Positions 6,767 to 50,812 of a stretch of 51,077 bases of DNA are shown here, in pieces. A program made the translations under genes and the position numbers. The stretch's first letter is position 1; every line of letters starts with the position of its first letter. The notes beneath the pieces are model-generated. The model saw only the letters and a list, made by a program, of their open reading frames with translations, did no database searches and was not told the origin of the DNA. Source of the DNA: Shigella phage ESh4; sequence record ON528718; one strand, given 5' to 3'.

Positions 6767-7240
6767 ATGAAAGAAAAGCGGATCGCGGTATCAACTGGCA
6801 AGATTGACAAACGCACAATCAATGGCAATAACGGAACTCGACGTGGTAAAGATAAGAAAAAGCGAAAGCGCCCTACAGGATACTATGTTTTAAAAGATGA
6901 AGTGCGCGCCGGGCTAAAAGCGCGACTTGATATCCTTATTGAGTATTACGGAAGTGTGTCAGCAATGGCAAAACGTCTTAACGTTAGCCAGCAAACTGTA
7001 AATCAGTGGCGTGTTCGCGGTATGATTTCAGCCGCTGGCGCTCAAAAGGTGCATAACGATTACAAAAAATATGGCTGCCAAGGCTATCGCGCGTCATTCT
7101 GCCGTCCAGATCTGCGATTTGATTCCAATGGTAAACCGCTCACAAAGAGATGTGATAAGCGTGAAATGTTGCGAGTGGTAAGAATGTCAGATTATGAACC
7201 TAGCGGATTCCTGTATAAACCTGAAAGCACTAATTGCTAA
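6767..7240 (+). CDS. HTH DNA-binding protein (Cro/YdaS-like motif)
   Basis: MAKRLNVSQQTVNQWRVRGMIS helix-turn-helix signature; basic N-terminus; GGAGAA RBS. Confidence 0.55.
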   Translation: MKEKRIAVSTGKIDKRTINGNNGTRRGKDKKKRKRPTGYYVLKDEVRAGLKARLDILIEYYGSVSAMAKRLNVSQQTVNQWRVRGMISAAGAQKVHNDYKKYGCQGYRASFCRPDLRFDSNGKPLTKRCDKREMLRVVRMSDYEPSGFLYKPESTNC

Positions 7241-7295
7241 AAACAATGCCTGGCATGATGTTATCATCTGTCAGGCTTTTTTGCTTGAGGTGTAT

Positions 7296-8228
7296 ATGAA
7301 TAACGAAAACTTTATGGTTTATCAAAAGGAAGATGTTCTCCCATATATGCAAGGATTGTGGCGTGAGGCGCTACAAAGTATTTGCGGTCTTCCAAATGAA
7401 GTTTTTAACGGCAAGCATCAATCTTGCCCCCACTGCGGCGGAAAGGATCGCTTCAGATGGACGGATAAACTTGGCGATAAAAAAGGCGATGGCGGTGCGA
7501 TCTGCAACGTGTGCGGTAATGATACCGGAATTGGTTGGATCATGAAGCTAACAGGAGAACCTTACAGCGAAGTGATCAATATTTTGGGCCGTTTTCTTGG
7601 AAAAGTTCCTCAGGACTATAGAATCAAGGCAAATAAGCGAGTATCTCGTGATTCTGGTTATTCGTTTGGGAAACAGGCAAGCCATGAATGCTGCGAGCGC
7701 GTTATGTCAAAAACGCTAAAATTTGATCGCACGCCGTTAAGCACCTATGAAGGGATATATCCTCCTGAAGATGGTCATTATGAATGCGGCGTTAAAGATG
7801 GTCGATACATTCACGCGTTACCATGTTACCTGGTGCATTCCGATGATATTGATGATGAAATGTGCAATGTGCTTTTCATTGATGAAGAAGGTAAACAGTC
7901 TTTTCTCGCAAAGGACTACACGCGCGGGTCTGTTGTGAGAACAGGAAGCACCGATAAGACGATCTATCTTTGCGTTGACTGGATTGATGCGCAACACATT
8001 CACCTTGCAACTGGTCAGGAGGTTTGGGCCTGTTTTGATGCAACTAACATTGAGATTGTGGCTTACAGGTATAAAGGCAACAGAAGAATGCGAGTTGTCT
8101 GTAAGAGCACAGATCGTGACGCGATCATTGCTGCTGAGGAAAGAGGACTTGAAATTATGATGCCGATTAATGATAATTACAGGCAAGGGATAGAGAGGAA
8201 TGTTTACAAACCTGAATCTCTTCTCTAA
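7296..8228 (+). CDS. DNA primase (zinc-ribbon, P4-type primase family)
   Basis: CPHCGGKDRFRWTD...CNVCG zinc-ribbon typical of phage primases; start at ATG 7296 with GAGGTG RBS (track start 7194 overlaps previous gene). Confidence 0.7.
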   Translation: MNNENFMVYQKEDVLPYMQGLWREALQSICGLPNEVFNGKHQSCPHCGGKDRFRWTDKLGDKKGDGGAICNVCGNDTGIGWIMKLTGEPYSEVINILGRFLGKVPQDYRIKANKRVSRDSGYSFGKQASHECCERVMSKTLKFDRTPLSTYEGIYPPEDGHYECGVKDGRYIHALPCYLVHSDDIDDEMCNVLFIDEEGKQSFLAKDYTRGSVVRTGSTDKTIYLCVDWIDAQHIHLATGQEVWACFDATNIEIVAYRYKGNRRMRVVCKSTDRDAIIAAEERGLEIMMPINDNYRQGIERNVYKPESLL

Positions 8229-14200: not shown

Positions 14201-15262
14201 TTAAATAAGATATTGCTTAAACTGGCGGCGCACCCAATCAGGAGTATCAAGGCAAACCTCAGGCTCACCGTTTGAATACGAAGGCCAAACGTCATGTTGC
14301 TGGCACATGGCAAACTGGTTAATCACGCTCATGTACTGAATGCGCCCGATCTTCAACTGCTCGCTATTCATGCGGAAAGCCAACGGCAAATAAGGTTCTT
14401 TCTTCTCTTGCGCTAACAGTCGCACAACTATAGGTCGCTTTTCTTCTGGATACGCTTTTCTGAATAAATCACATTGCAACGCCATTTTCAAATAATAGCC
14501 GTGATTGTAAGCCAGGCGCATAAACTCAGCCGGATTCGCGCTCATTGTTGTTTTGTAGTCAGTAATCACAATCGCCTCTGGATAAATAATATCGCGGCAA
14601 ATCGGTTGACCTTTTTCATCGTAACCATCAATCAGAGTTGCTGTCACGTTCTTTGTTACGTCAACGTGATCGCATCGCACTTTGACTTTTACGCCGTTGA
14701 TTTCACCGAACAACGATAATTCACGTTGTGCTGTCTTGCTATTCATACATGCGTTATGTTCCGGTATTGATTCCAGAACCTGGCGCATTGCCACGCACGA
14801 ATCGTAATCTTTAGCCTCGATTAACTGAACCCCATCGGCCCTAGCCTGGCTTTCTGCGATCATGTCGATTAACCACATGACGTTAAGGTCTTCTCCGCAG
14901 TCAACCATCATTTTTATAAGTTCTGGGTAAGTCTTTCCGGTTGTACCTTTCAGGCCAAATGATTTCAGCTTTGCAGCAAGCGCCGTTTGGCTGGTTATCA
15001 GATCCTTAAAGTCTTCTGGCGCTGGCGCACGGCGATAGGTTTTTTCGAAAAGCTCCTTGCTTTCAAAGTTGGTATGCGACTGCGTACCAAAAACTAGCGC
15101 CTTGCTCTTATCGTCACGAGGCTTGAACTTCCACGCTGCCGGGCATGTGCTGTAAATCTCTGCCAGGCTTGAACCGCTAACATAATCAGCCGTCCACGCT
15201 TCTGGATCGTGATAAAGCTCGTTGCTCATTTCTTCGCTGGTGTACGCCATAAACTTATTCAT
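14201..15262 (-). CDS. PD-(D/E)xK family recombination exonuclease
   Basis: D...ITDYKT core typical of RecB/YqaJ-like nucleases; first gene of leftward recombination operon. Confidence 0.65.
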   Translation of the reverse strand: MNKFMAYTSEEMSNELYHDPEAWTADYVSGSSLAEIYSTCPAAWKFKPRDDKSKALVFGTQSHTNFESKELFEKTYRRAPAPEDFKDLITSQTALAAKLKSFGLKGTTGKTYPELIKMMVDCGEDLNVMWLIDMIAESQARADGVQLIEAKDYDSCVAMRQVLESIPEHNACMNSKTAQRELSLFGEINGVKVKVRCDHVDVTKNVTATLIDGYDEKGQPICRDIIYPEAIVITDYKTTMSANPAEFMRLAYNHGYYLKMALQCDLFRKAYPEEKRPIVVRLLAQEKKEPYLPLAFRMNSEQLKIGRIQYMSVINQFAMCQQHDVWPSYSNGEPEVCLDTPDWVRRQFKQYLI

Positions 15263-15291
15263 GATTTGCCCTCGTTTGTTGGTATGCCTGC

Positions 15292-15319
15292 ATTTTAGCT
15301 ATTTAATGCGTTTAGTCAA
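15292..15319 (-). promoter_or_regulatory. sigma70-like promoter (TTGACT-16-TAAAAT)
   Basis: Good -35/-10 pair 30 nt upstream of exonuclease start. Confidence 0.5.
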
Positions 15320-15429
15320 CAGTTATTTTGTTTTTTCTGTTCTAACAACGTTCCAGACGAATCGAATAACAAAATTTACATGTAAGTGATTGATAAATAT
15401 CTTTGTTGTCTTTTTGTTCCCTTGTTCCT

Positions 15430-15620
15430 CCGTTTGCGCCGGATATAGATATATAGACACACACAAACACTGACACATACACAACCACATAAAAATTACC
15501 AGGCACACAAAATCACACAAAACATAGATAACAAGAAAAAAACAAATATAAATATATATACTACTAACTTATTGATTTATATGTATGTATATATATTTAT
15601 CTGTATGTATAGCGCTCTAT
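15430..15620. repeat. low-complexity CA-rich then TA/TG-rich tract
   Basis: acacacaaacactgacacatacacaaccacata... followed by tatgtatgtatatatatttatctgtatgtata; non-coding divergent junction. Confidence 0.7.
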
Positions 15621-15690
15621 TGATGTTCACTTTTTGAGCTAAATTTAAGCCTCCGCAGATTTGAGAACACTGGAGAACAAAAAGAACAGA

Positions 15691-15733
15691 ATAGCACTTT
15701 TTGCTAAACGCCTACCGTAAGATCATGTATAGT
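15691..15733 (+). promoter_or_regulatory. conserved promoter-like unit (variant TTGCTA)
   Basis: ATAGCACTTTTTGCTAAAC + 21 bp + TATAGT, 32 nt upstream of ORF 15765. Confidence 0.5.
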
Positions 15734-15764
15734 TGCAACTAACAACAACGAAGGAGAAACCAAG

Positions 15765-15995
15765 ATGAAAAAATTAATCGCTGTTTTGATTGCGGCCGTA
15801 ACCCTGACTGGTTGTGCAAATAACCTGAAAAACGGAGACTGTGTTACTTACGCTTACGGATCCTGCATGATGCGCTTTGTTGATGGTAATAAAGTTCCAG
15901 CAGGAGAGATTGATATGCGATTCAAAGGGCTTTCGTCTGACGATAACCAGGGCAATTTCAGTGGTAAGGTATCTGTTAAATCTAGGGAGTGGTGA
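15765..15995 (+). CDS. small lipoprotein (possible Cor/Llp-like superinfection exclusion protein)
   Basis: Signal peptide with lipobox LTGC (MKKLIAVLIAAVTLTGC); 76 aa; located beside tail/host-range genes. Confidence 0.5.
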   Translation: MKKLIAVLIAAVTLTGCANNLKNGDCVTYAYGSCMMRFVDGNKVPAGEIDMRFKGLSSDDNQGNFSGKVSVKSREW

Positions 15996-15998
15996 TTC

Positions 15999-16955
15999 AT
16001 GGGGCATGGTATATATATAAATTTAAATGATGGGCGACCAGCAATGGAAATAACATCAGGATTGCGAGCACCATCATATTGTGGGGCAATACAGGCCGAC
16101 GGTGTTGACTCATCTGGCTCTGTTTTTGATTTCGGCTTACAAATGAGTCCTGGATCTAGCGCTTTTTGCCTTCCATCTCAGGCCGTTTATATTGACGATA
16201 TGGAATACATTCCAGAGGTTTATTATTTAACCAGCTTCCAAAAGGTTAATGATTCAGTAGGCAGAATAACCGTTGGAAACTTTAACGGTAGCGGCGGTCG
16301 CAGGATGAGGTTTTACGGAAATTGCTACGAAATATTACCAGCAAGCACGTATAATCAGGGGATGCTTGTAAGTGATTCAACTGATTTTTCGGCAATACCA
16401 AATAACGCGAGATTGATGAGCGCCGCATTCGTTGGTGGGATTAATGTTAATGGGTATGCTCAACTTCCAGTACCAGGAATCCCATTTGGAATGTGGGATA
16501 ATCCGAATGTGACGCTTGAATCTGATGGTAATGGAATATGGTGTCGTGATGCTAACTATAATGGTACTGATGATGTTGCTGGCAGCACATACGTTCAGTT
16601 GGTGATATTTAATAACACTCCGCCACCACCAGGACCAGGAATAACAATGAGTAATGCCTCCGGTCAGATAGTATTTTCAAGCGTTAGACGTCCATTTGTT
16701 CTTGCTGGGTTTATGGGTATTAGTGATACATGGCAGTGGTGCGGAGGTTTTTTTCCAATAATGAGAACCGGAACAATATGCAGGGTTGTCGGTGGATACA
16801 ACAACATAAGATATAAAGGTGTGTGCATGAGTGGAGGTAATGTCAGGTCATCTCCAGGCACAAGAGTTGGTAACTATTCAACTCAAGGCGGAGCAAACTT
16901 TCCATTCAATATAAATATTTCAATGCCAATACCATTTACTCCAAATATGTATTAA
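15999..16955 (+). CDS. hypothetical protein (318 aa, Gly/Asn/Ser-rich, PPPPGPG motif)
   Basis: ORF immediately after lipoprotein gene; ends at bidirectional terminator. Confidence 0.5.
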   Translation: MGHGIYINLNDGRPAMEITSGLRAPSYCGAIQADGVDSSGSVFDFGLQMSPGSSAFCLPSQAVYIDDMEYIPEVYYLTSFQKVNDSVGRITVGNFNGSGGRRMRFYGNCYEILPASTYNQGMLVSDSTDFSAIPNNARLMSAAFVGGINVNGYAQLPVPGIPFGMWDNPNVTLESDGNGIWCRDANYNGTDDVAGSTYVQLVIFNNTPPPPGPGITMSNASGQIVFSSVRRPFVLAGFMGISDTWQWCGGFFPIMRTGTICRVVGGYNNIRYKGVCMSGGNVRSSPGTRVGNYSTQGGANFPFNINISMPIPFTPNMY

Positions 16956-26268: not shown

Positions 26269-26895
26269 ATTTTGAATGCATCATTTCAAGTGCTTTTTGC
26301 TCCATGATTCGCAAGTCGTTTAGCGCCATCTCGCGATCCTCAACCTTGTAAATCTCAAAAAGCATAGGCAAGACATTATAATCAAATCCGTAAGCGCCAC
26401 CGCCTGAACATCTCCATTGTGTTTGCATTGCGCAAAATATATCCCATGATTGCATCATGCTTTCATCAAATATAACCTCTGGCGGATCTTCTCCTTCATA
26501 GTCTGCCCTTGTAAGGCCAACAGCCTCAAGCTCTGCATCTGTCGGCGGTTTCTGATAAAACAGGTAAACCGCCCTTTTTAGTTTTTTACTCGCTGCCCCG
26601 CAAGCGCTTTCATGTATGCGCTAGTTAATCCGATTGCTGTCGCTGGGTAGTAATCAAGAAGCTGTTTAATATTTTCTTCGTTAAATTCATCATCAAGATT
26701 CCAACCGGAAGCAAGGAAGGTGATCATTTCAACATCGCTCATCGGGGTGTCGGACGTGTAGCGTTCGTGAATCTCACTTGTTTTTCGGTGGCGAACTGTG
26801 AAGATAATTGTTTGATCTTCTCCGTTAGGCATTGCAAATTTCACTGGTAATTTAAAGTCAGGAAGCGGCCCAAGAGTTAATTTCATTTTTGACAT
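26267..26895 (-). CDS. tail assembly chaperone GT fusion via -1 programmed frameshift
   Basis: Slippery heptamer A_AAA_AAC (plus coords 26581-26587) overlapping G stop; -1 frame is open and runs into track ORF 26267-26458. Confidence 0.55.
26578..26895 (-). CDS. tail assembly chaperone G (zero-frame product)
   Basis: 105-aa ORF between major tail and tape measure genes; AAGGAGAAAGAA RBS. Confidence 0.7.
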   Translation of the reverse strand: MSKMKLTLGPLPDFKLPVKFAMPNGEDQTIIFTVRHRKTSEIHERYTSDTPMSDVEMITFLASGWNLDDEFNEENIKQLLDYYPATAIGLTSAYMKALAGQRVKN

Positions 26896-26906: not shown

Positions 26907-26952
26907 TGATAGCACTTTTTGTTAAAAGAATTGATTATGAATCGTGTATCAT
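26907..26952 (+). promoter_or_regulatory. conserved promoter-like unit in inverted (antisense) orientation
   Basis: Plus strand ATAGCACTTTTTGTTAAAAG + 22 bp + TATCAT, pointing rightward into the leftward tail operon. Confidence 0.4.
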
Positions 26953-26994: not shown

Positions 26995-27657
26995 TTATGC
27001 TACTTGAGAAGGTAGGAAGGTGAATCGACCTTTCAGGGATACAGACAGGGAAACAGTTTCCATTTCGTTAACGGTCGTTTGTGGGATCTCGTTAAACGAA
27101 AGGACACCAGCCCAGCAACGCATTTCTTTTGCTTTTGGTACATACATGCGAAGCGCCGTTACAGCGCCTGACTCATCTGCTGAACGCAATAGCGGATAGA
27201 TCGCGTTATCGTATTCGTGCGCAAAAGTGTAGGTAAGAGAAACGGCGCTCTTATAGGTAGGTAACTGCTGTTCCTGGTCGTCTGCCAAACACTGATAAGT
27301 ATAGTATTGCTGTTCGCCGCCGTCCTGCGACAAATCCTGAACGCAAGGGATCTCAGTCCATGCATCAATCTTGGCAAAAGATGCAGTGCCGCCAGTCGGG
27401 AACACGTTCTGATCGGTAGTATCAACACCCTCAAGAGTCACGCTTGTTTCTTCACCGTCAGCCTTTACACGCATAACACGATCAATCAGCTTGCCCCAGG
27501 AGGACGCAGTGATGATTACATAATCGCCTTTCTTGTACGCAGTGCCACCAGATGCAACAGTGAAAACGGGATCTTTAGCGTTTGACACTGCGGTTGCTTG
27601 GATTTCGCTGCCGCGATTGCTCTCAACGAAAATTTGCGATCCATTTGGTAAATGCAT
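26995..27657 (-). CDS. major tail protein (gpV-like)
   Basis: 220 aa ORF upstream of G/GT with its own terminator; AAGGAG RBS. Confidence 0.7.
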   Translation of the reverse strand: MHLPNGSQIFVESNRGSEIQATAVSNAKDPVFTVASGGTAYKKGDYVIITASSWGKLIDRVMRVKADGEETSVTLEGVDTTDQNVFPTGGTASFAKIDAWTEIPCVQDLSQDGGEQQYYTYQCLADDQEQQLPTYKSAVSLTYTFAHEYDNAIYPLLRSADESGAVTALRMYVPKAKEMRCWAGVLSFNEIPQTTVNEMETVSLSVSLKGRFTFLPSQVA

Positions 27658-29647: not shown

Positions 29648-30622
29648 TTAACCTGATTTTTTCAAGCCAGTAATAAGCACTAGCGTAAACGGACGGTAAA
29701 TCGTCAGGCCAGTACATTTTGAAGTGCACGGAACTTTGAAATGCAGATCTTTTGGCTGCGCCGGAAGCATGTTAAATGCTTCTGGAATCTCGATCGACAT
29801 ATTCATTGGGTCTTTCTCATATACCAGGCAACCTTTAGTTCCAGCGCCATCAATATCCTCAAGCTCTGCGATTGAGTCGATGGTGATTCCGCTGTTTTGT
29901 TTCTGGAAGTATTCCAGATAACTTTCAGTGGTGTTTTCCATTCGAACGGAAAGAACCTTGCGCATAGACGGCGGAATCAGGATGTTGGTTGCTCGGTGCT
30001 GACCATTGGTGATGGTCTGAATGGTTTCAATAGCCTTTTCCAGTTCATCAGATGCTGCCTGCGGGAACTTAGTGTTTTCATCAGCACTTAACCAGCCAGT
30101 TGACACGATCTTTGTCAGGTTAGGGTGTTCAAACACCGAAAGAATCTTATGCGGCTTTGAACCCTTAAACACCAGGCGGTTAACCTCCTGATCATGAGCG
30201 TTTTGCGCTGCGTTTGCCTTGCGAGTGGAAAGGCTCTTACCAGTGCGCTGACCAGCCTTGATTTCGTCAATGGAGATCAAGAACGCGTTACCCAGGCGGA
30301 ATACTTTACCGAATTCGCTAGACATCAGCGCGTCAACGGTCGGCAGGTCGTCGGTGTAATCAGCGATAATTTTTGCGTAACCAACTTTGTCAAACATCTG
30401 ATATTCAAAAGTCTTATCAGTATCAGAAAGCTCATTAGTTACAGGGAATACACGAAGCGCTGAACCTGCCGGATATTCTTTCTCGTAAGCATTAGAGCGA
30501 ATCTTATGCAGTTCTTGAGCGGCCCAAATACCCATATCGGACGCATCACCTTTAACGCCGCGAGTAGCCAGATAGCTAGAAACAATATCCGCATCTAGCT
30601 GATCAAATTTTTCTTTTTCCAT
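29648..30622 (-). CDS. major capsid protein
   Basis: 324 aa, flanked by strong promoter-like sequence upstream and terminator downstream; T1-type capsid gene position. Confidence 0.75.
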   Translation of the reverse strand: MEKEKFDQLDADIVSSYLATRGVKGDASDMGIWAAQELHKIRSNAYEKEYPAGSALRVFPVTNELSDTDKTFEYQMFDKVGYAKIIADYTDDLPTVDALMSSEFGKVFRLGNAFLISIDEIKAGQRTGKSLSTRKANAAQNAHDQEVNRLVFKGSKPHKILSVFEHPNLTKIVSTGWLSADENTKFPQAASDELEKAIETIQTITNGQHRATNILIPPSMRKVLSVRMENTTESYLEYFQKQNSGITIDSIAELEDIDGAGTKGCLVYEKDPMNMSIEIPEAFNMLPAQPKDLHFKVPCTSKCTGLTIYRPFTLVLITGLKKSG

Positions 30623-30665: not shown

Positions 30666-30693
30666 ATGATAGCATTTTTTGTTAAACGTGCAA
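30666..30693 (-). promoter_or_regulatory. sigma70-like promoter for major capsid gene (TTGCAC-16-TATCAT)
   Basis: Built from an inverted copy of the conserved element (plus 30669-30687). Confidence 0.45.
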
Positions 30694-30705
30694 CATAATT
30701 TTGTG

Positions 30706-31140
30706 TTATGGGTCAATGCTTACCCCGACAATATATGAATCATGATCAACCTTTACATGTTCGCCAGTAAATATCCAACCAATCAGCAAGTCGCCTTCAC
30801 TGTATGCCACATCTCCATCTTGCGTTACAAATACTTTATCTCCATATTCTGGCGCTTCGCTCTCAGAAGTTAAGCACCAAACATTACCACGACTAACCAC
30901 ATTAACTGGATCGCCCTCCTCATATATGCACGAGTCCGGCGGCCTTACTGCCACTCCAATAACCAGATCACCATTAACACTGACTATTTTATATCCGCTT
31001 GATATATATGATAACCTTACAATCTTACCTGGTGAAATAAACTCGTCTCCACATACAAAAGAACCATTAATCACCATTATTGAAGAATCAACCATGCATC
31101 CTGGCGACTCAGCGCCAACAATGACTGAATAATCACTCAT
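30706..31140 (-). CDS. capsid-associated protein, paralog A (decoration-like)
   Basis: Shares motifs with 31186-31698 (GVAV..., E.G...NV...G.VW.L....AP.[FY]G); same module. Confidence 0.5.
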   Translation of the reverse strand: MSDYSVIVGAESPGCMVDSSIMVINGSFVCGDEFISPGKIVRLSYISSGYKIVSVNGDLVIGVAVRPPDSCIYEEGDPVNVVSRGNVWCLTSESEAPEYGDKVFVTQDGDVAYSEGDLLIGWIFTGEHVKVDHDSYIVGVSIDP

Positions 31141-45038: not shown

Positions 45039-45069
45039 GCTTTATACCCTCTCGTGATTCAGTGGCTGC

Positions 45070-45098
45070 ATTATTATTTACCATTCCTGGCGTGTCAA
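45070..45098 (-). promoter_or_regulatory. sigma70-like early promoter (TTGACA-17-AATAAT)
   Basis: Perfect -35 TTGACA on minus strand, 17-bp spacer, AATAAT; 30 nt upstream of ORF 44568-45038. Confidence 0.5.
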
Positions 45099-45229
45099 AT
45101 GTTTTTTATTGTTATTGGCAGTTTTTCAATGTTGTCTTTTCATAGCACAACAAGATTCTCGTTTTTCTCCTTATAAATCAATGTTATTTTGGCGTGTTAT
45201 CTAAAAATGCGCGGATTCGCCCCTACCCC

Positions 45230-45370
45230 ATATATACATACCTGCCAACACACAACCACATACAATCACCAAAAATACATCAGACATCAATATGACCACA
45301 TAACATACATAACAGATAGTAATTTATAGATACATATAAATAAATAATCCTTATTTTTTAGTATGTTATA
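45230..45370. repeat. low-complexity CA-rich / TA-rich tract
   Basis: ccaacacacaaccacatacaatcacc...cataacatacataacagatag...; shares the 13-mer acacaaccacata with region 15430-15620. Confidence 0.6.
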
Positions 45371-45422
45371 TGGATTTCTCTTGTTATTTTTTGTTATGCG
45401 ATTCCACGCCGGAATAACACGC

Positions 45423-45460
45423 ATAACAGCGATAACAGAAGATAACAGATGTGCGCGCCA
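45423..45460. repeat. ATAACAG direct repeats (3-4 copies)
   Basis: cATAACAGcgATAACAGaagATAACAGatg; iteron-like. Confidence 0.5.
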
Positions 45461-45579
45461 GGATTGCCGAAAAGGACGCAAGAGGACCGCGTTTATCTAT
45501 CCCCTCCACACAAAAAGTTAATCAACTGATTAAAATTGATCAAACTCAAAGTCTCACAATCCAGGTGATCGCGAATGAG

Positions 45580-45619
45580 TTATTCCTGTTATTCCTGATT
45601 AATGGAATAGATGGAATAA
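45580..45619. promoter_or_regulatory. operator-like array of four TTATTCC half-sites
   Basis: TTATTCCTG TTATTCCTG attaat GGAATAGAT GGAATAAT: two direct repeats and two inverted copies with 9-bp period, just upstream of promoter unit 45632-45677. Confidence 0.5.
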
Positions 45620-45631
45620 TCGCCAGTTGAG

Positions 45632-45677
45632 AAATAGCACTTTTTGTTAAAACTGAATCCGCCTGATCGGGTACATT
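45632..45677 (+). promoter_or_regulatory. conserved promoter-like unit (first rightward gene)
   Basis: AAATAGCACTTTTTGTTAAAAC + 22 bp + TACATT, 40 nt upstream of ORF 45717. Confidence 0.5.
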
Positions 45678-45716
45678 ACACACATCGAAACGAGACACCC
45701 ATCAGGAGACGGTAAG

Positions 45717-49228: not shown

Positions 49229-50812
49229 ATGAATTTTTCGTTTGAAACCAATAAACTAACACCAAAACAAATTATCGAATTAGCTGATGCACAAGGATTG
49301 TCTCCGGTGCGCGTGTCCATTCAGGCAAACGGATACCGTCAATCGTCCAGCTTTTGGGGTGAGGTTAATGATGTTAATAACGGAAACGATCGCTACCCTG
49401 TAATTTCTCTTGGCAATGATGTTGATATTGTTGGAAAGTTAGCGCGCAACATTGCTCGCTCTGTTCAATTCCCTGAATCATCGGCCTATATGCATTTTAT
49501 CGGCTGCGTGTCTGCTGCAATGCTTGGGCGATTCACGGTTGAGTATCACGGAACGGATCAGCCAACCGCTCTTTATGTTGTCACAAGTCAGCCTCCTTCA
49601 ACTGGTAAATCTGCCGTTAACAGCCTGGCTCTTGCTCCAATGGTTGCAGAAGTGGAAAGAATTAACGATCAGCGAAAGAAGGAAAGAAAAAAGATTCAGG
49701 CAAAGTTGGCAGGTCTTGCAAAAGAGATGAAAAGCGAGCGCTCCGGCGCTGATATGGAATCTCTGTACCAGGAGAAAGAAGATCTGGAAGAAAAACTGGA
49801 AAAGATGTGTGACATCGTTTTCCCTGTGTCCGACACCACGCCGGAAGGACTTGCAAGAATCAACAATCGCCAGGGTAACTTTGCTGTGATTTCAGACGAG
49901 GCAACAAGTATTAACAGCCTTTTAGGTCTGACATATGCCAATAGCGAACGTAAAACCAACAGCGAACTTGTTCTGAAAGCATGGGATCATGGTCATGTTT
50001 CTATAGCTCGTGCAAACGCTGACAACAATATGAGTTTTAAAGCTCTTGGCTGCATGGCGGTAATTGCCCAGGATGAAACAATCAATGCCATCATGGATGC
50101 AGGATCGCGAGGTATTGGTGTAAGTGAGCGTTATTTGCTTGTGCGTGAAGAATCATTTTTAGGTCGTCGAAAGTTTGTTGATGATAACGGTGATTCGACT
50201 TATGAGCCTGTTGATGGAGAACTGAAAAGCCAATATTTTAAGCTGATCCATAACATCATGAGTGAATCAAACATCCAGCTTAAGATCAGTAAATCAGCAA
50301 TGCGAGTTCTTAACATGGCTCGTCAGGAGATGGAGCCGCACCTTGCTGATGGAGGAAAGTATTCGCATACAATGCTGCGCGGTGCGCTTGGCAAAATGGA
50401 TAAGCAGGTGATCAGGATTGCTTCGGTTTTGCACACTATCCGCAATTGGTTTAATCCTGGTGGATACCCTCAGAAGTCGAAAGAGATTGAAGTTGAAACC
50501 GTTCAGGAAGCACTGTTGATGTTTAGCGAGTTGAGCAAAACATACATTAGCGCCGCCAACGCTTCTGGCTATGCTGGTGATGATGCTGAGATGGGTAAAC
50601 TAATCGAGATTATCACTCGACACGGTAAGGCTAACAAGGGGATCTTGAATGTGCGCGCCATATATGAGGCTGCACGAAAAGTTAAGCCGTTTGTTGGTCA
50701 GGCTGGCGTAATGAAGCGTATGGAAACGCAACTGCTGCCGATGCTTGAAGAAAGAAATTATATTTGTGTGATTAATGGCGTTGTTTTTGTAAATCCAACA
50801 TTGCTGGGGTAA
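49229..50812 (+). CDS. P-loop NTPase (DUF3987-like; possible replication/helicase-associated ATPase)
   Basis: Walker A-like VVTSQPPSTGKSAV and Walker B-like NFAVISDEAT; 527 aa; AAAAAAGGAG RBS. Confidence 0.5.
   Translation: MNFSFETNKLTPKQIIELADAQGLSPVRVSIQANGYRQSSSFWGEVNDVNNGNDRYPVISLGNDVDIVGKLARNIARSVQFPESSAYMHFIGCVSAAMLGRFTVEYHGTDQPTALYVVTSQPPSTGKSAVNSLALAPMVAEVERINDQRKKERKKIQAKLAGLAKEMKSERSGADMESLYQEKEDLEEKLEKMCDIVFPVSDTTPEGLARINNRQGNFAVISDEATSINSLLGLTYANSERKTNSELVLKAWDHGHVSIARANADNNMSFKALGCMAVIAQDETINAIMDAGSRGIGVSERYLLVREESFLGRRKFVDDNGDSTYEPVDGELKSQYFKLIHNIMSESNIQLKISKSAMRVLNMARQEMEPHLADGGKYSHTMLRGALGKMDKQVIRIASVLHTIRNWFNPGGYPQKSKEIEVETVQEALLMFSELSKTYISAANASGYAGDDAEMGKLIEIITRHGKANKGILNVRAIYEAARKVKPFVGQAGVMKRMETQLLPMLEERNYICVINGVVFVNPTLLG

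Follow-up and report, generated by a model that had tools for sequence, protein, structure and literature searches.

T1 is a classical T phage, and T1-like phages are common contaminants of laboratories and of fermentations. In the core origin of simian virus 40 (SV40), inverted GAGGC pentanucleotide sites for the large T antigen accompany an AT tract, which is melted by a hexameric AAA+ helicase, and in the origins of Staphylococcus aureus pathogenicity islands and phage-inducible chromosomal islands (SaPI/PICI) two sets of iterons reportedly flank an AT-rich region that is melted by the Rep helicase. In phage P4, the type 1 repeats TGTTCACC, which are the binding sites of the alpha primase-helicase and which we verified in NC_001609, are found in ori and in crr, in both orientations and with a spacing of 9-11 nt. 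For phage TLS, the 2024 re-annotation describes a search for origin-like repeats that found none (PMC11447400). As recent papers on the family Drexlerviridae report no origin, the two non-coding modules that we describe here in Shigella phage ESh4 (ON528718; the whole stretch of 51,077 nucleotides is the window of this analysis) represent a new testable candidate and not a known feature. The element under study, a low-complexity tract at about 15.3-15.7 kb, is the centre of a conserved and duplicated non-coding module of ~370-400 bp (module A, 15.3-15.7 kb; module B, 45.1-45.45 kb). We propose, with a probability of about 0.5, that this tract is the spacer and unwinding centre of an origin-type module which is flanked by iterons and occurs twice in the genome, forming either two origins or one origin and a cis enhancer in the manner of P4 ori and crr.

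The window corresponds to a complete T1-like phage genome (Drexlerviridae, Tempevirinae, Hanrivervirus-like). The 15-kb gap (15263-15764, 502 bp) separates the exonuclease VIII (exo VIII)-erf-ssb operon on the minus strand (exo VIII start at 15262) from a cor-type lipoprotein gene on the plus strand (ATG at 15765), and its closest matches are found in Salmonella phage slyngel (95.4%), G29-2 and JakobBernoulli. The 45-kb gap (45039-45716) lies amid a block of small early genes and heads a rightward block that ends with the gene for a DUF3987 helicase. An earlier note, made from the letters of the sequence, had described in the first gap a CA-rich run followed by a TA/TG run, bracketed by a leftward sigma-70 promoter and a rightward promoter unit. 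These elements are all present: the runs at 15458-15518 and 15580-15611, the leftward promoter as TTGACT-16-TAAAAT at 15319-15292, and the promoter unit at 15691-15733, where it spans exactly the stretch from the ATAGCACTTTTTGCTAAA element to a TATAGT hexamer.

The same note had pointed to a 13-mer shared with the 45-kb region, and this word (ACACAACCACATA) is indeed found only at 15479 and 45250, against a genome-wide expectation of 0.05. In shuffles that keep the local composition, an exact 13-mer common to both tracts has a P of ~0.001-0.017, a modestly significant result that is suggestive but not decisive on its own, and the collinear paralogy of the whole gaps provides stronger evidence. 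From the aligned 560 nt upstream of exo in 26 phages we built a profile, which recovers the 45-kb gap collinearly and in unchanged orientation over profile positions 22-415 (nhmmer E 1.5e-15). Local alignments of module A with module B score 58-92 in ESh4 (58), JakobBernoulli, TLS and T1, compared with 25-27 +/- 4 for block shuffles, indicating that the duplication is present in both subfamilies. The two modules share one order of elements, which runs from a leftward sigma-70 promoter through TGTT repeats, a GC box ((T)TGCGC(C)GGAT), a short TA run, an A/C-rich and G-poor tract, AACA repeats, a TA/TG-rich core, one or more TGTT repeats, a second GC box and an AACA array to the 18-nt element ATAGCAYTTTTTGYTAAA (Table 1).

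The repeats of both modules are 8-11 nt apart and form inverted sets around the centre, and in module A the right arm (15646-15689) repeats the left arm (15404-15444) imperfectly in inverted orientation, which the profile recovers as a minus-strand self-hit (nhmmer, E 2e-5). Hexamer counts show how strongly such words are enriched (14 copies of ATAACA against 0.78 expected; ATAACA occurs 12 times in module B) and also that the enriched words are lineage-specific, being ATAACA and AGAACA in ESh4, GTGAAC and GGAACA in TLS, and GTTACA and CGATTA in T1. In this last phage, module A and module B score 66 against each other and 44 or less against their respective Tempevirinae counterparts, a likeness within one genome indicative of either concerted evolution or co-evolution with a shared binding factor.

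Relatives of ESh4 do carry a comparable tract. Of 149 matching phage records, 133 cover at least 80% of the 15-kb gap, and T1 and TLS likewise have both tracts at the equivalent junctions. We took the four-fold degenerate sites of exo as a neutral yardstick, which is saturated in distant relatives (identity 0.44-0.49); in these relatives, identity reaches 0.56-0.73 in the left arm, 0.65-0.80 in the central AACA repeats (0.65-0.87 across distant relatives), 0.65-0.71 in the first site for integration host factor (IHF) and 0.51-0.68 in the TA core. Among close relatives, the TA core shows an identity of 0.92-0.98 versus 0.82-0.91 at the exo four-fold sites. The invariant columns across 15-26 phages are TGTT and AACA; the innermost repeat of the left arm reads TGTTCAC in most relatives, and AACAA in the right arm is invariant across 15 sequences. 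The exo VIII promoter retains its -35 GTCAA and its -10 region in 26 relatives, and the first TGTT array, read on the promoter strand, is A-rich and UP-element-like at about -40 to -60. Together with the paralogy and the family-wide retention, this conservation of arms and core beyond saturated four-fold sites supports the proposal that the two tracts are related and functional, not random spacer.

The CA-rich tract itself follows a different pattern. Its identity in distant relatives is 0.20-0.62, about neutral (0.20-0.51 in those with saturated exo sites), its length stays at 74-77 nt in 22 of 26 phages, and its composition is steady (A ~0.5, C ~0.26, G 0.03-0.15). The comparison of length with sequence across relatives that had been suggested gives a kept length and a drifting sequence, and does not support the CA-rich tract as the constrained element: it is the least sequence-conserved part, and what relatives retain are its length, its composition and its position within a larger module, which the earlier note had not described. 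The distance between the arms falls into classes of 199-200, 210-211, 219-222, 233 and 241 nt, that is, in steps of about one helical turn. The record of Escherichia phage haarsle (MN850600) carries an unexplained 34-nt 'repeat_region' (27022-27055; L001 2730-2763) within the equivalent of the CA-rich tract, which is the sole annotation of this region among the records seen.

The physical properties of the DNA single out the centre of the modules. Nearest-neighbour energies place the least stable 60-mers of the genome at 15540-15599 (z 5.2) and 45310-45369 (z 4.7), the next reaching 3.4, and the TA cores are likewise the two least stable 60-mers in T1, TLS and JakobBernoulli (z 4.9-5.8 vs 3.4-3.8). 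Intrinsic bending of the low-complexity tract, one of the functions put forward in the earlier note, is not supported: where the genome mean of the Bolshoy-Trifonov wedge model is 12.6 degrees per 30 bp, the tract is predicted to have 2-15, and the 99th percentile of 29.9 degrees is exceeded only by the TGTT arms at 15423 (32.8) and 45168. Binding of nucleoid proteins, also put forward there, has support at the sequence level only, from the exact IHF core consensus, of which there are 7 in the genome, 2 of them in module A, in blocks kept in many relatives, and 1 in the segment specific to module B; the two module A sites flank the CA tract and do not lie inside it. An inward promoter (TTTACA-17-TATCTT, 15375-15403) was considered as the source of an R-loop primer and rejected, as it is weak, unconserved and overlaps the first IHF site.

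At the level of RNA, Rfam at gathering thresholds gives no match for the tract, and the RNAalifold consensus of 15 phages reaches -1.4 kcal/mol, with only the invariant TGTT/AACA columns pairing and essentially no compensatory support. Whole-module folds have a z of ~-2.5 on both strands, an equality that results from the inverted repeats of the DNA; the G-poor tract is unpaired in these folds, and the segment folded as single-stranded DNA has a z of +0.6.

The most telling evidence for a link to replication comes, by analogy, from distant phages with the same replication gene set, in which an analogous module with different repeats lies directly beside the DUF3987 helicase gene. In L053 and L054 this module is placed just downstream of the helicase gene and its terminator, and contains ACCCCAG/CTGGGGT repeats together with a GC box; within the locus, no 60-mer is less stable than the TA-rich 'tagatatgtatgta…' centre of the module, and L053 has an exact 11-nt inverted pair, CAAAACCCCAG/CTGGGGTTTTG, 288 nt apart. 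In L055 the module is just upstream of the helicase gene and gathers 13 of the 17 copies of CCCCA/TGGGG in the contig together with the least stable 60-mer, and in L052, again upstream, a (CAA)11 A/C tract is flanked by CTTACA/TGTAAG, with 10 copies in the gap when both orientations are counted. The L053 module is not placed at a divergent junction, and the 143-bp divergent junction of L053 has no such module, a placement that argues against a mere spacer between divergent promoters.

The replication genes of ESh4 provide candidates for the proteins that would act at such a module. The genome has no DNA polymerase gene and encodes a superfamily 2 (SF2) helicase, a primase homologous to the primase domain of P4 alpha (residues 26-262, E 4e-14; Pfam Zn_Ribbon_Prim) and the DUF3987 protein (49229-50812), whose confident structural model (pLDDT 88.9) corresponds to an MCM-like AAA+ helicase with a C-terminal winged helix at residues 451-521. 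The best structural matches of this model are MCM2-7, archaeal MCM and Cdc6/Orc1, and the assignment is in line with Kazlauskas et al. 2016 (PMC4889955). The C-terminal 85 residues of the protein also match a separate PHROG with no assigned function (phrog_7327). Immediately upstream of the Zn-ribbon primase (7194-8228) lies the gene of a Cro/YdaS-like helix-turn-helix (HTH) protein (6767-7240), an adjacency that is also seen in a distant phage (L053 8344-9537). Across ESh4, TLS and T1 this protein has an invariant N-terminal motif, STGxIDKRxINGNNGxRRGKD, and a variable recognition helix; it may act in replication and not as a 'transcriptional regulator'. The primase open reading frame (ORF) of 344 aa overlaps the HTH gene by 47 nt, and the true start of the primase probably lies further downstream.

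In the mechanism that we envisage, a phage DNA-binding protein would occupy the repeat arrays, with the winged-helix domain of the DUF3987 protein and the Cro-like HTH protein near the primase as candidates; IHF would bend the centre and bring the arms together; melting of the TA core would be aided by negative supercoiling from the two outward-firing promoters; and the opened core would receive the replicative helicase and the P4-alpha-like primase. The anatomy of the modules, their paralogy, their pattern of conservation, the minima of duplex stability and the linkage of the analogous modules to helicase genes are what the analysis shows. Protein binding, melting and initiation are steps that we infer, and since this applies to every functional step, the origin reading is held at about one half.

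Several observations weigh against this reading. The modules contain or adjoin the strongest predicted early promoters, so that conservation of their outer parts may be promoter-related, and for regulators, repeat arrays beside promoters are just as typical. The motif of the repeats is short, degenerate in ESh4 and unlike between modules A and B (also in T1), which is awkward for a single initiator; comparison of the recognition helices of the helicase winged helix and the Cro-like protein with the repeat sequence, in search of covariation, involves too few lineages to be informative. No DnaA boxes (≤1 mismatch) are found in the module cores, and GATC shows no clustering or enrichment at the modules. 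The helical phasing of the arm distances comes from ~5 independent length classes only, with a rough P of ~0.02. Module B is 3.5 kb and module A ~7 kb or more from the helicase and primase genes, module A adjoining exo-erf-ssb instead. The ESh4-type profile detects no sequence homology to the modules of the distant phages L052 and L053, which makes the distant modules analogues only and not demonstrable homologues. Neither BLASTP nor tblastn (with alpha and with its C-terminal 217 residues) finds the origin-binding/helicase domain of P4 alpha in ESh4, T1 or TLS, and a phmmer comparison of three candidate proteins with the PDB yields no match to an alpha domain, so we speak of a resemblance to P4 and not of family membership. 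Finally, T1-like phages lean heavily on recombination, and their initiation may not need a fixed origin.

Table 1. Elements of module A, module B and their flanks in ESh4 (positions in the window; spacings in nt).
Feature	Position	Strand	Details
Module A: leftward sigma-70 promoter of the exo VIII-erf-ssb operon	15292..15319	-	TTGACT, 16 nt, TAAAAT; paralogous to the promoter at 45070-45098
Module A: T-rich TGTT array 1	15323..15345		TGTT at 15329, 15338; TGTT invariant in 15 sequences
Module A: IHF core consensus site 1 (TATCAATCACTTA)	15383..15395	-	TAAGT…TGAT kept across relatives
Module A: left arm, three TGTT(C) repeats	15404..15431		At 15404, 15415, 15423; spacing 11 + 8
Module A: GC box 1 (TTTGCGCCGGAT)	15433..15444		Module B counterpart ATGCGCGGAT, 45207-45216; also in both modules of T1 and TLS
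Module A: TA run and A/C-rich, G-poor tract	15445..15520		Contains the 13-mer, 15479-15491
Module A: central AACA repeats	15521..15546		At 15521, 15530, 15541; spacing 9 + 11
Module A: TA/TG-rich core, candidate DNA unwinding element	15540..15612		Contains the least stable 60-mer of the genome
Module A: IHF core consensus site 2 (AATCAATAAGTTA)	15565-15577	-	Inside the TA/TG-rich core
Module A: single inner TGTTCAC	15624..15630		Between core and right arm; equals 7/8 bases of the P4 type 1 repeat TGTTCACC
Module A: GC box 2 (CCTCCGCAG)	15650..15658		Module B counterpart CCACGCCGG, 45404-45412
Module A: right arm (GAGAACA, GAGAACA, AGAACAG)	15663..15689		AACA at 15666, 15676, 15685; spacing 10 + 9; inverted relative to the left arm
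Module A: rightward promoter unit upstream of cor	15691..15733	+	18-nt element ATAGCACTTTTTGCTAAA (15691-15708) and TATAGT (15728-15733)
Module B: leftward sigma-70 promoter	45070..45098	-	TTGACA, 17 nt, AATAAT; aligns to the module A promoter
Module B: core, paralogue of 15323-15689	45100..45449		nhmmer profile match
Module B: outer TGTT repeats	45100, 45110, 45130, 45182, 45195
Module B: GC boxes	45207-45216 and 45404-45412
Module B: A/C-rich tract			Contains the 13-mer, 45250-45262
Module B: central AACA repeats	45302, 45311		Followed by the TA-rich core
Module B: inner TGTT repeats	45364, 45382, 45392
Module B: right array			Four ATAACA repeats, AACA at 45416-45447
Module B only: AATCA-rich segment	45450..45630		IHF core consensus 45520-45532 (+); no counterpart in module A
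Module B: copy of the 18-nt promoter-unit element	45634..45651	+

The chief rival, which is compatible with an origin function and which we consider possible though less than likely, assigns the modules to regulation of the divergent early promoters by a looped complex. The arrays would be occupied by a phage regulator (the Cro-like HTH protein is an example) or by a regulator of the host, IHF would bend the CA/TA centre, and the loop would switch the outward promoters, leaving the tract as a spacer constrained in length and flexibility. A near-consensus sigma-70 promoter on one side and the 18-nt element on the other enclose each module, but the repeats are clear of the -35 and -10 hexamers, and no such arrays lie upstream of the remaining 12 copies of the promoter element. 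The kept spacer length, the shifts of the arm distances by about one helical turn and the presence of IHF core consensus sites fit a loop, although a pure spacer need not be the least stable duplex in four genomes. The recognition helix of the Cro-like HTH protein differs among ESh4, TLS and T1, as the repeats also do. In the TLS re-annotation, only three sigma-70-like intergenic promoters are reported, and one of them precedes the exonuclease gene (PMC11447400), which agrees with regulation at this junction; on the other side, the L053 module follows the terminator of the helicase gene and not a divergent junction. A search of the literature on the T1 transcriptome, Drexlerviridae transcription start sites and the P4 octamer yielded nothing useful.

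That the tract is AT-rich filler or a sink for host proteins appears improbable to us. According to this explanation, low-complexity DNA between promoters would keep its AT content through UP-element needs or mutation bias, or would bind H-NS/Fis non-specifically. It can account for the near-neutral evolution of the CA tract and for the modest significance of the 13-mer against the local composition, and low-complexity DNA here does align with its own reverse complement. It does not account for a length and composition that stay steady despite the turnover of sequence, for the same order of elements in two paralogues and two subfamilies, or for a core conserved beyond four-fold sites, and the tract is not predicted to be curved.

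A role of the modules in packaging, as pac sites for the small terminase, or as preferred sites of Exo/Erf recombination, is distinctly improbable as an explanation of the shared core. The records of T1 and TLS are numbered from the mapped pac end and start within the gap of module B, the T1 record has a 2.8-kb terminal repeat annotated from position 1 (1-2800), and the pac or genome end is placed in the untranslated region of module B in the SU57 paper (PMC7718038) and in the TLS paper (PMC11447400). These starts, however, align ~100 nt or more outside the shared core, in the ~180-nt AATCA-rich segment that module A lacks, so that pac would be a neighbour of module B and not the function of the shared core; by the same alignment, 45450-45630 is a candidate pac region for ESh4. 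Moreover, headful phages need one pac site and not two, and the distant analogous modules lie beside helicase genes, several kb from terminase genes.

As for recombination, in several Hanriverviruses the similarity to module B is confined to the sequence right of ~45423-45434 (from query positions 385-396, >90% identity), which puts the breakpoint in the right arm, and ESh4 and JakobBernoulli score 48 in module B and 870 in module A, where they are nearly identical; module A, for its part, adjoins the recombination operon. On these comparisons, module B is a mosaic or recombination boundary. Records with such mosaicism are aalborv, herni, PGN590, Henu8, A13a and C4, and some relatives have 0.8-1.1 kb inserted within module B. 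The earlier suggestion of a replication or recombination hotspot divides into a role in replication, which is the best-supported reading, and a recombination hotspot, for which the mosaic breakpoints in module B offer weak support. A non-coding RNA or a small protein gene, finally, can be set aside as having a negligible chance, since the fold scores that might suggest an RNA are strand-equal because of the inverted repeats and come without Rfam, consensus-fold or G-poor-tract pairing support, and since the ORF at 15323-15520, already called spurious in the earlier note, is broken by stops or frameshifts in 5 of 5 close relatives, even though some GenBank records annotate hypothetical proteins here.

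A more specific form of the origin reading, which we find rather unlikely, is a two-site origin of the Drexlerviridae resembling P4 ori and crr, in which an MCM-like (SF6) helicase would be loaded on a strand-asymmetric, G-poor spacer of fixed length between inverted arrays, with the two sites co-evolving in each genome. If true, this would define for the first time where an MCM-like helicase is loaded in a bacteriophage, and the position of both sites between outward-firing early promoters would be explained. For the origin reading as a whole, the candidate pair of sites makes the open question of the T1-like origin experimentally approachable and offers a handle on the recruitment of an MCM-like phage helicase. 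The modules also account for two long 'empty' gaps, in which hypothetical proteins are at times annotated in error, and for phage engineering they mark regions best left undisturbed.

Some observations concern the neighbourhood of module A and the sequence records. After cor lies the gene of a DUF6453 protein of 318 aa (15999-16955, plus strand); at this place haarsle has other plus-strand genes and slyngel has minus-strand genes, so the right flank of module A is a variable cargo site. About 18-20 unannotated 'Campylobacter phage' records (host Campylobacter jejuni) carry both gaps at 91-93% identity, and as these genomes are clearly those of T1-like coliphages, their host labels look doubtful.

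The 18-nt element on the right edge of the modules has 14 copies in the ESh4 genome against 0.04 expected. In the copies inspected (e.g. 3198, 46512, 49157, 15691), a -10-like hexamer (TATATT, TATTAT, CATAAT, TATAGT) lies 21-22 nt downstream of the TTGYTA of the element, a distance too long for a normal -35 that would place the element at about -50 to -33; judged from this spacing, an UP-element-like or activator site fits better than a -35 box. Two copies on the plus strand oppose the surrounding minus-strand structural genes, one (26909-26926) between the genes 26578-26895 and 26995-27657 and the other (30669-30686) between the major capsid gene (29648-30622) and 30706-31140, and these may drive antisense transcripts or small unannotated genes.

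At 15691-15708 and 45634-45651 the 18-nt element matches the 21-nt intergenic direct repeat aaATAGCACnnnTTGnTAAAA ("ATAGCAC…TAAA"), which the TLS paper describes for TLS, T1 and Rtp without an assigned function and places, in TLS, upstream of genes and only in the direction of transcription (PMC11447400). The likeness lies in the copy on the right edge of both ESh4 modules and is limited to this flanking part; the low-complexity tract has no copy, and the tract, the arms and the core fall outside the repeat and are not mentioned in the accessible text of that paper. Compared with SV40-type origins, the modules similarly set short inverted repeats beside an AT-rich element, and the phage helicase is MCM-like, but sequence and binding domains show no homology, and size and layout differ, so that this is an analogy only. 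In the modules as in SaPI/PICI origins, two repeat sets flank an easily melted AT-rich centre, the repeat sequence varies by lineage with the architecture kept, and in L053 and L055 the module is beside the helicase gene, whereas the helicase family is unrelated and the T1-like module is duplicated and kilobases from the helicase gene.

With P4 the differences are that the ESh4 helicase is a separate MCM-like DUF3987 protein, that the ESh4 repeats are degenerate (TGTTC[CT], ATAACA) with no exact octamer array, and that ESh4 has an A/C-rich tract of fixed length, GC boxes and flanking divergent promoters that are not annotated for P4 ori or crr. The likenesses are these: in both phages, two cis sites per genome carry arrays of GAACA-core repeats in both orientations, with 9-11 nt spacing and beside AT-rich DNA; the arms of most Tempevirinae and of TLS use TGTTCAC/GTGAACA, which equals 7 of the 8 bases of TGTTCACC and has one exact copy in ESh4 (TGTTCAC at 15624); and in L053 the module directly follows the helicase gene on its downstream side, in the way that crr follows alpha.

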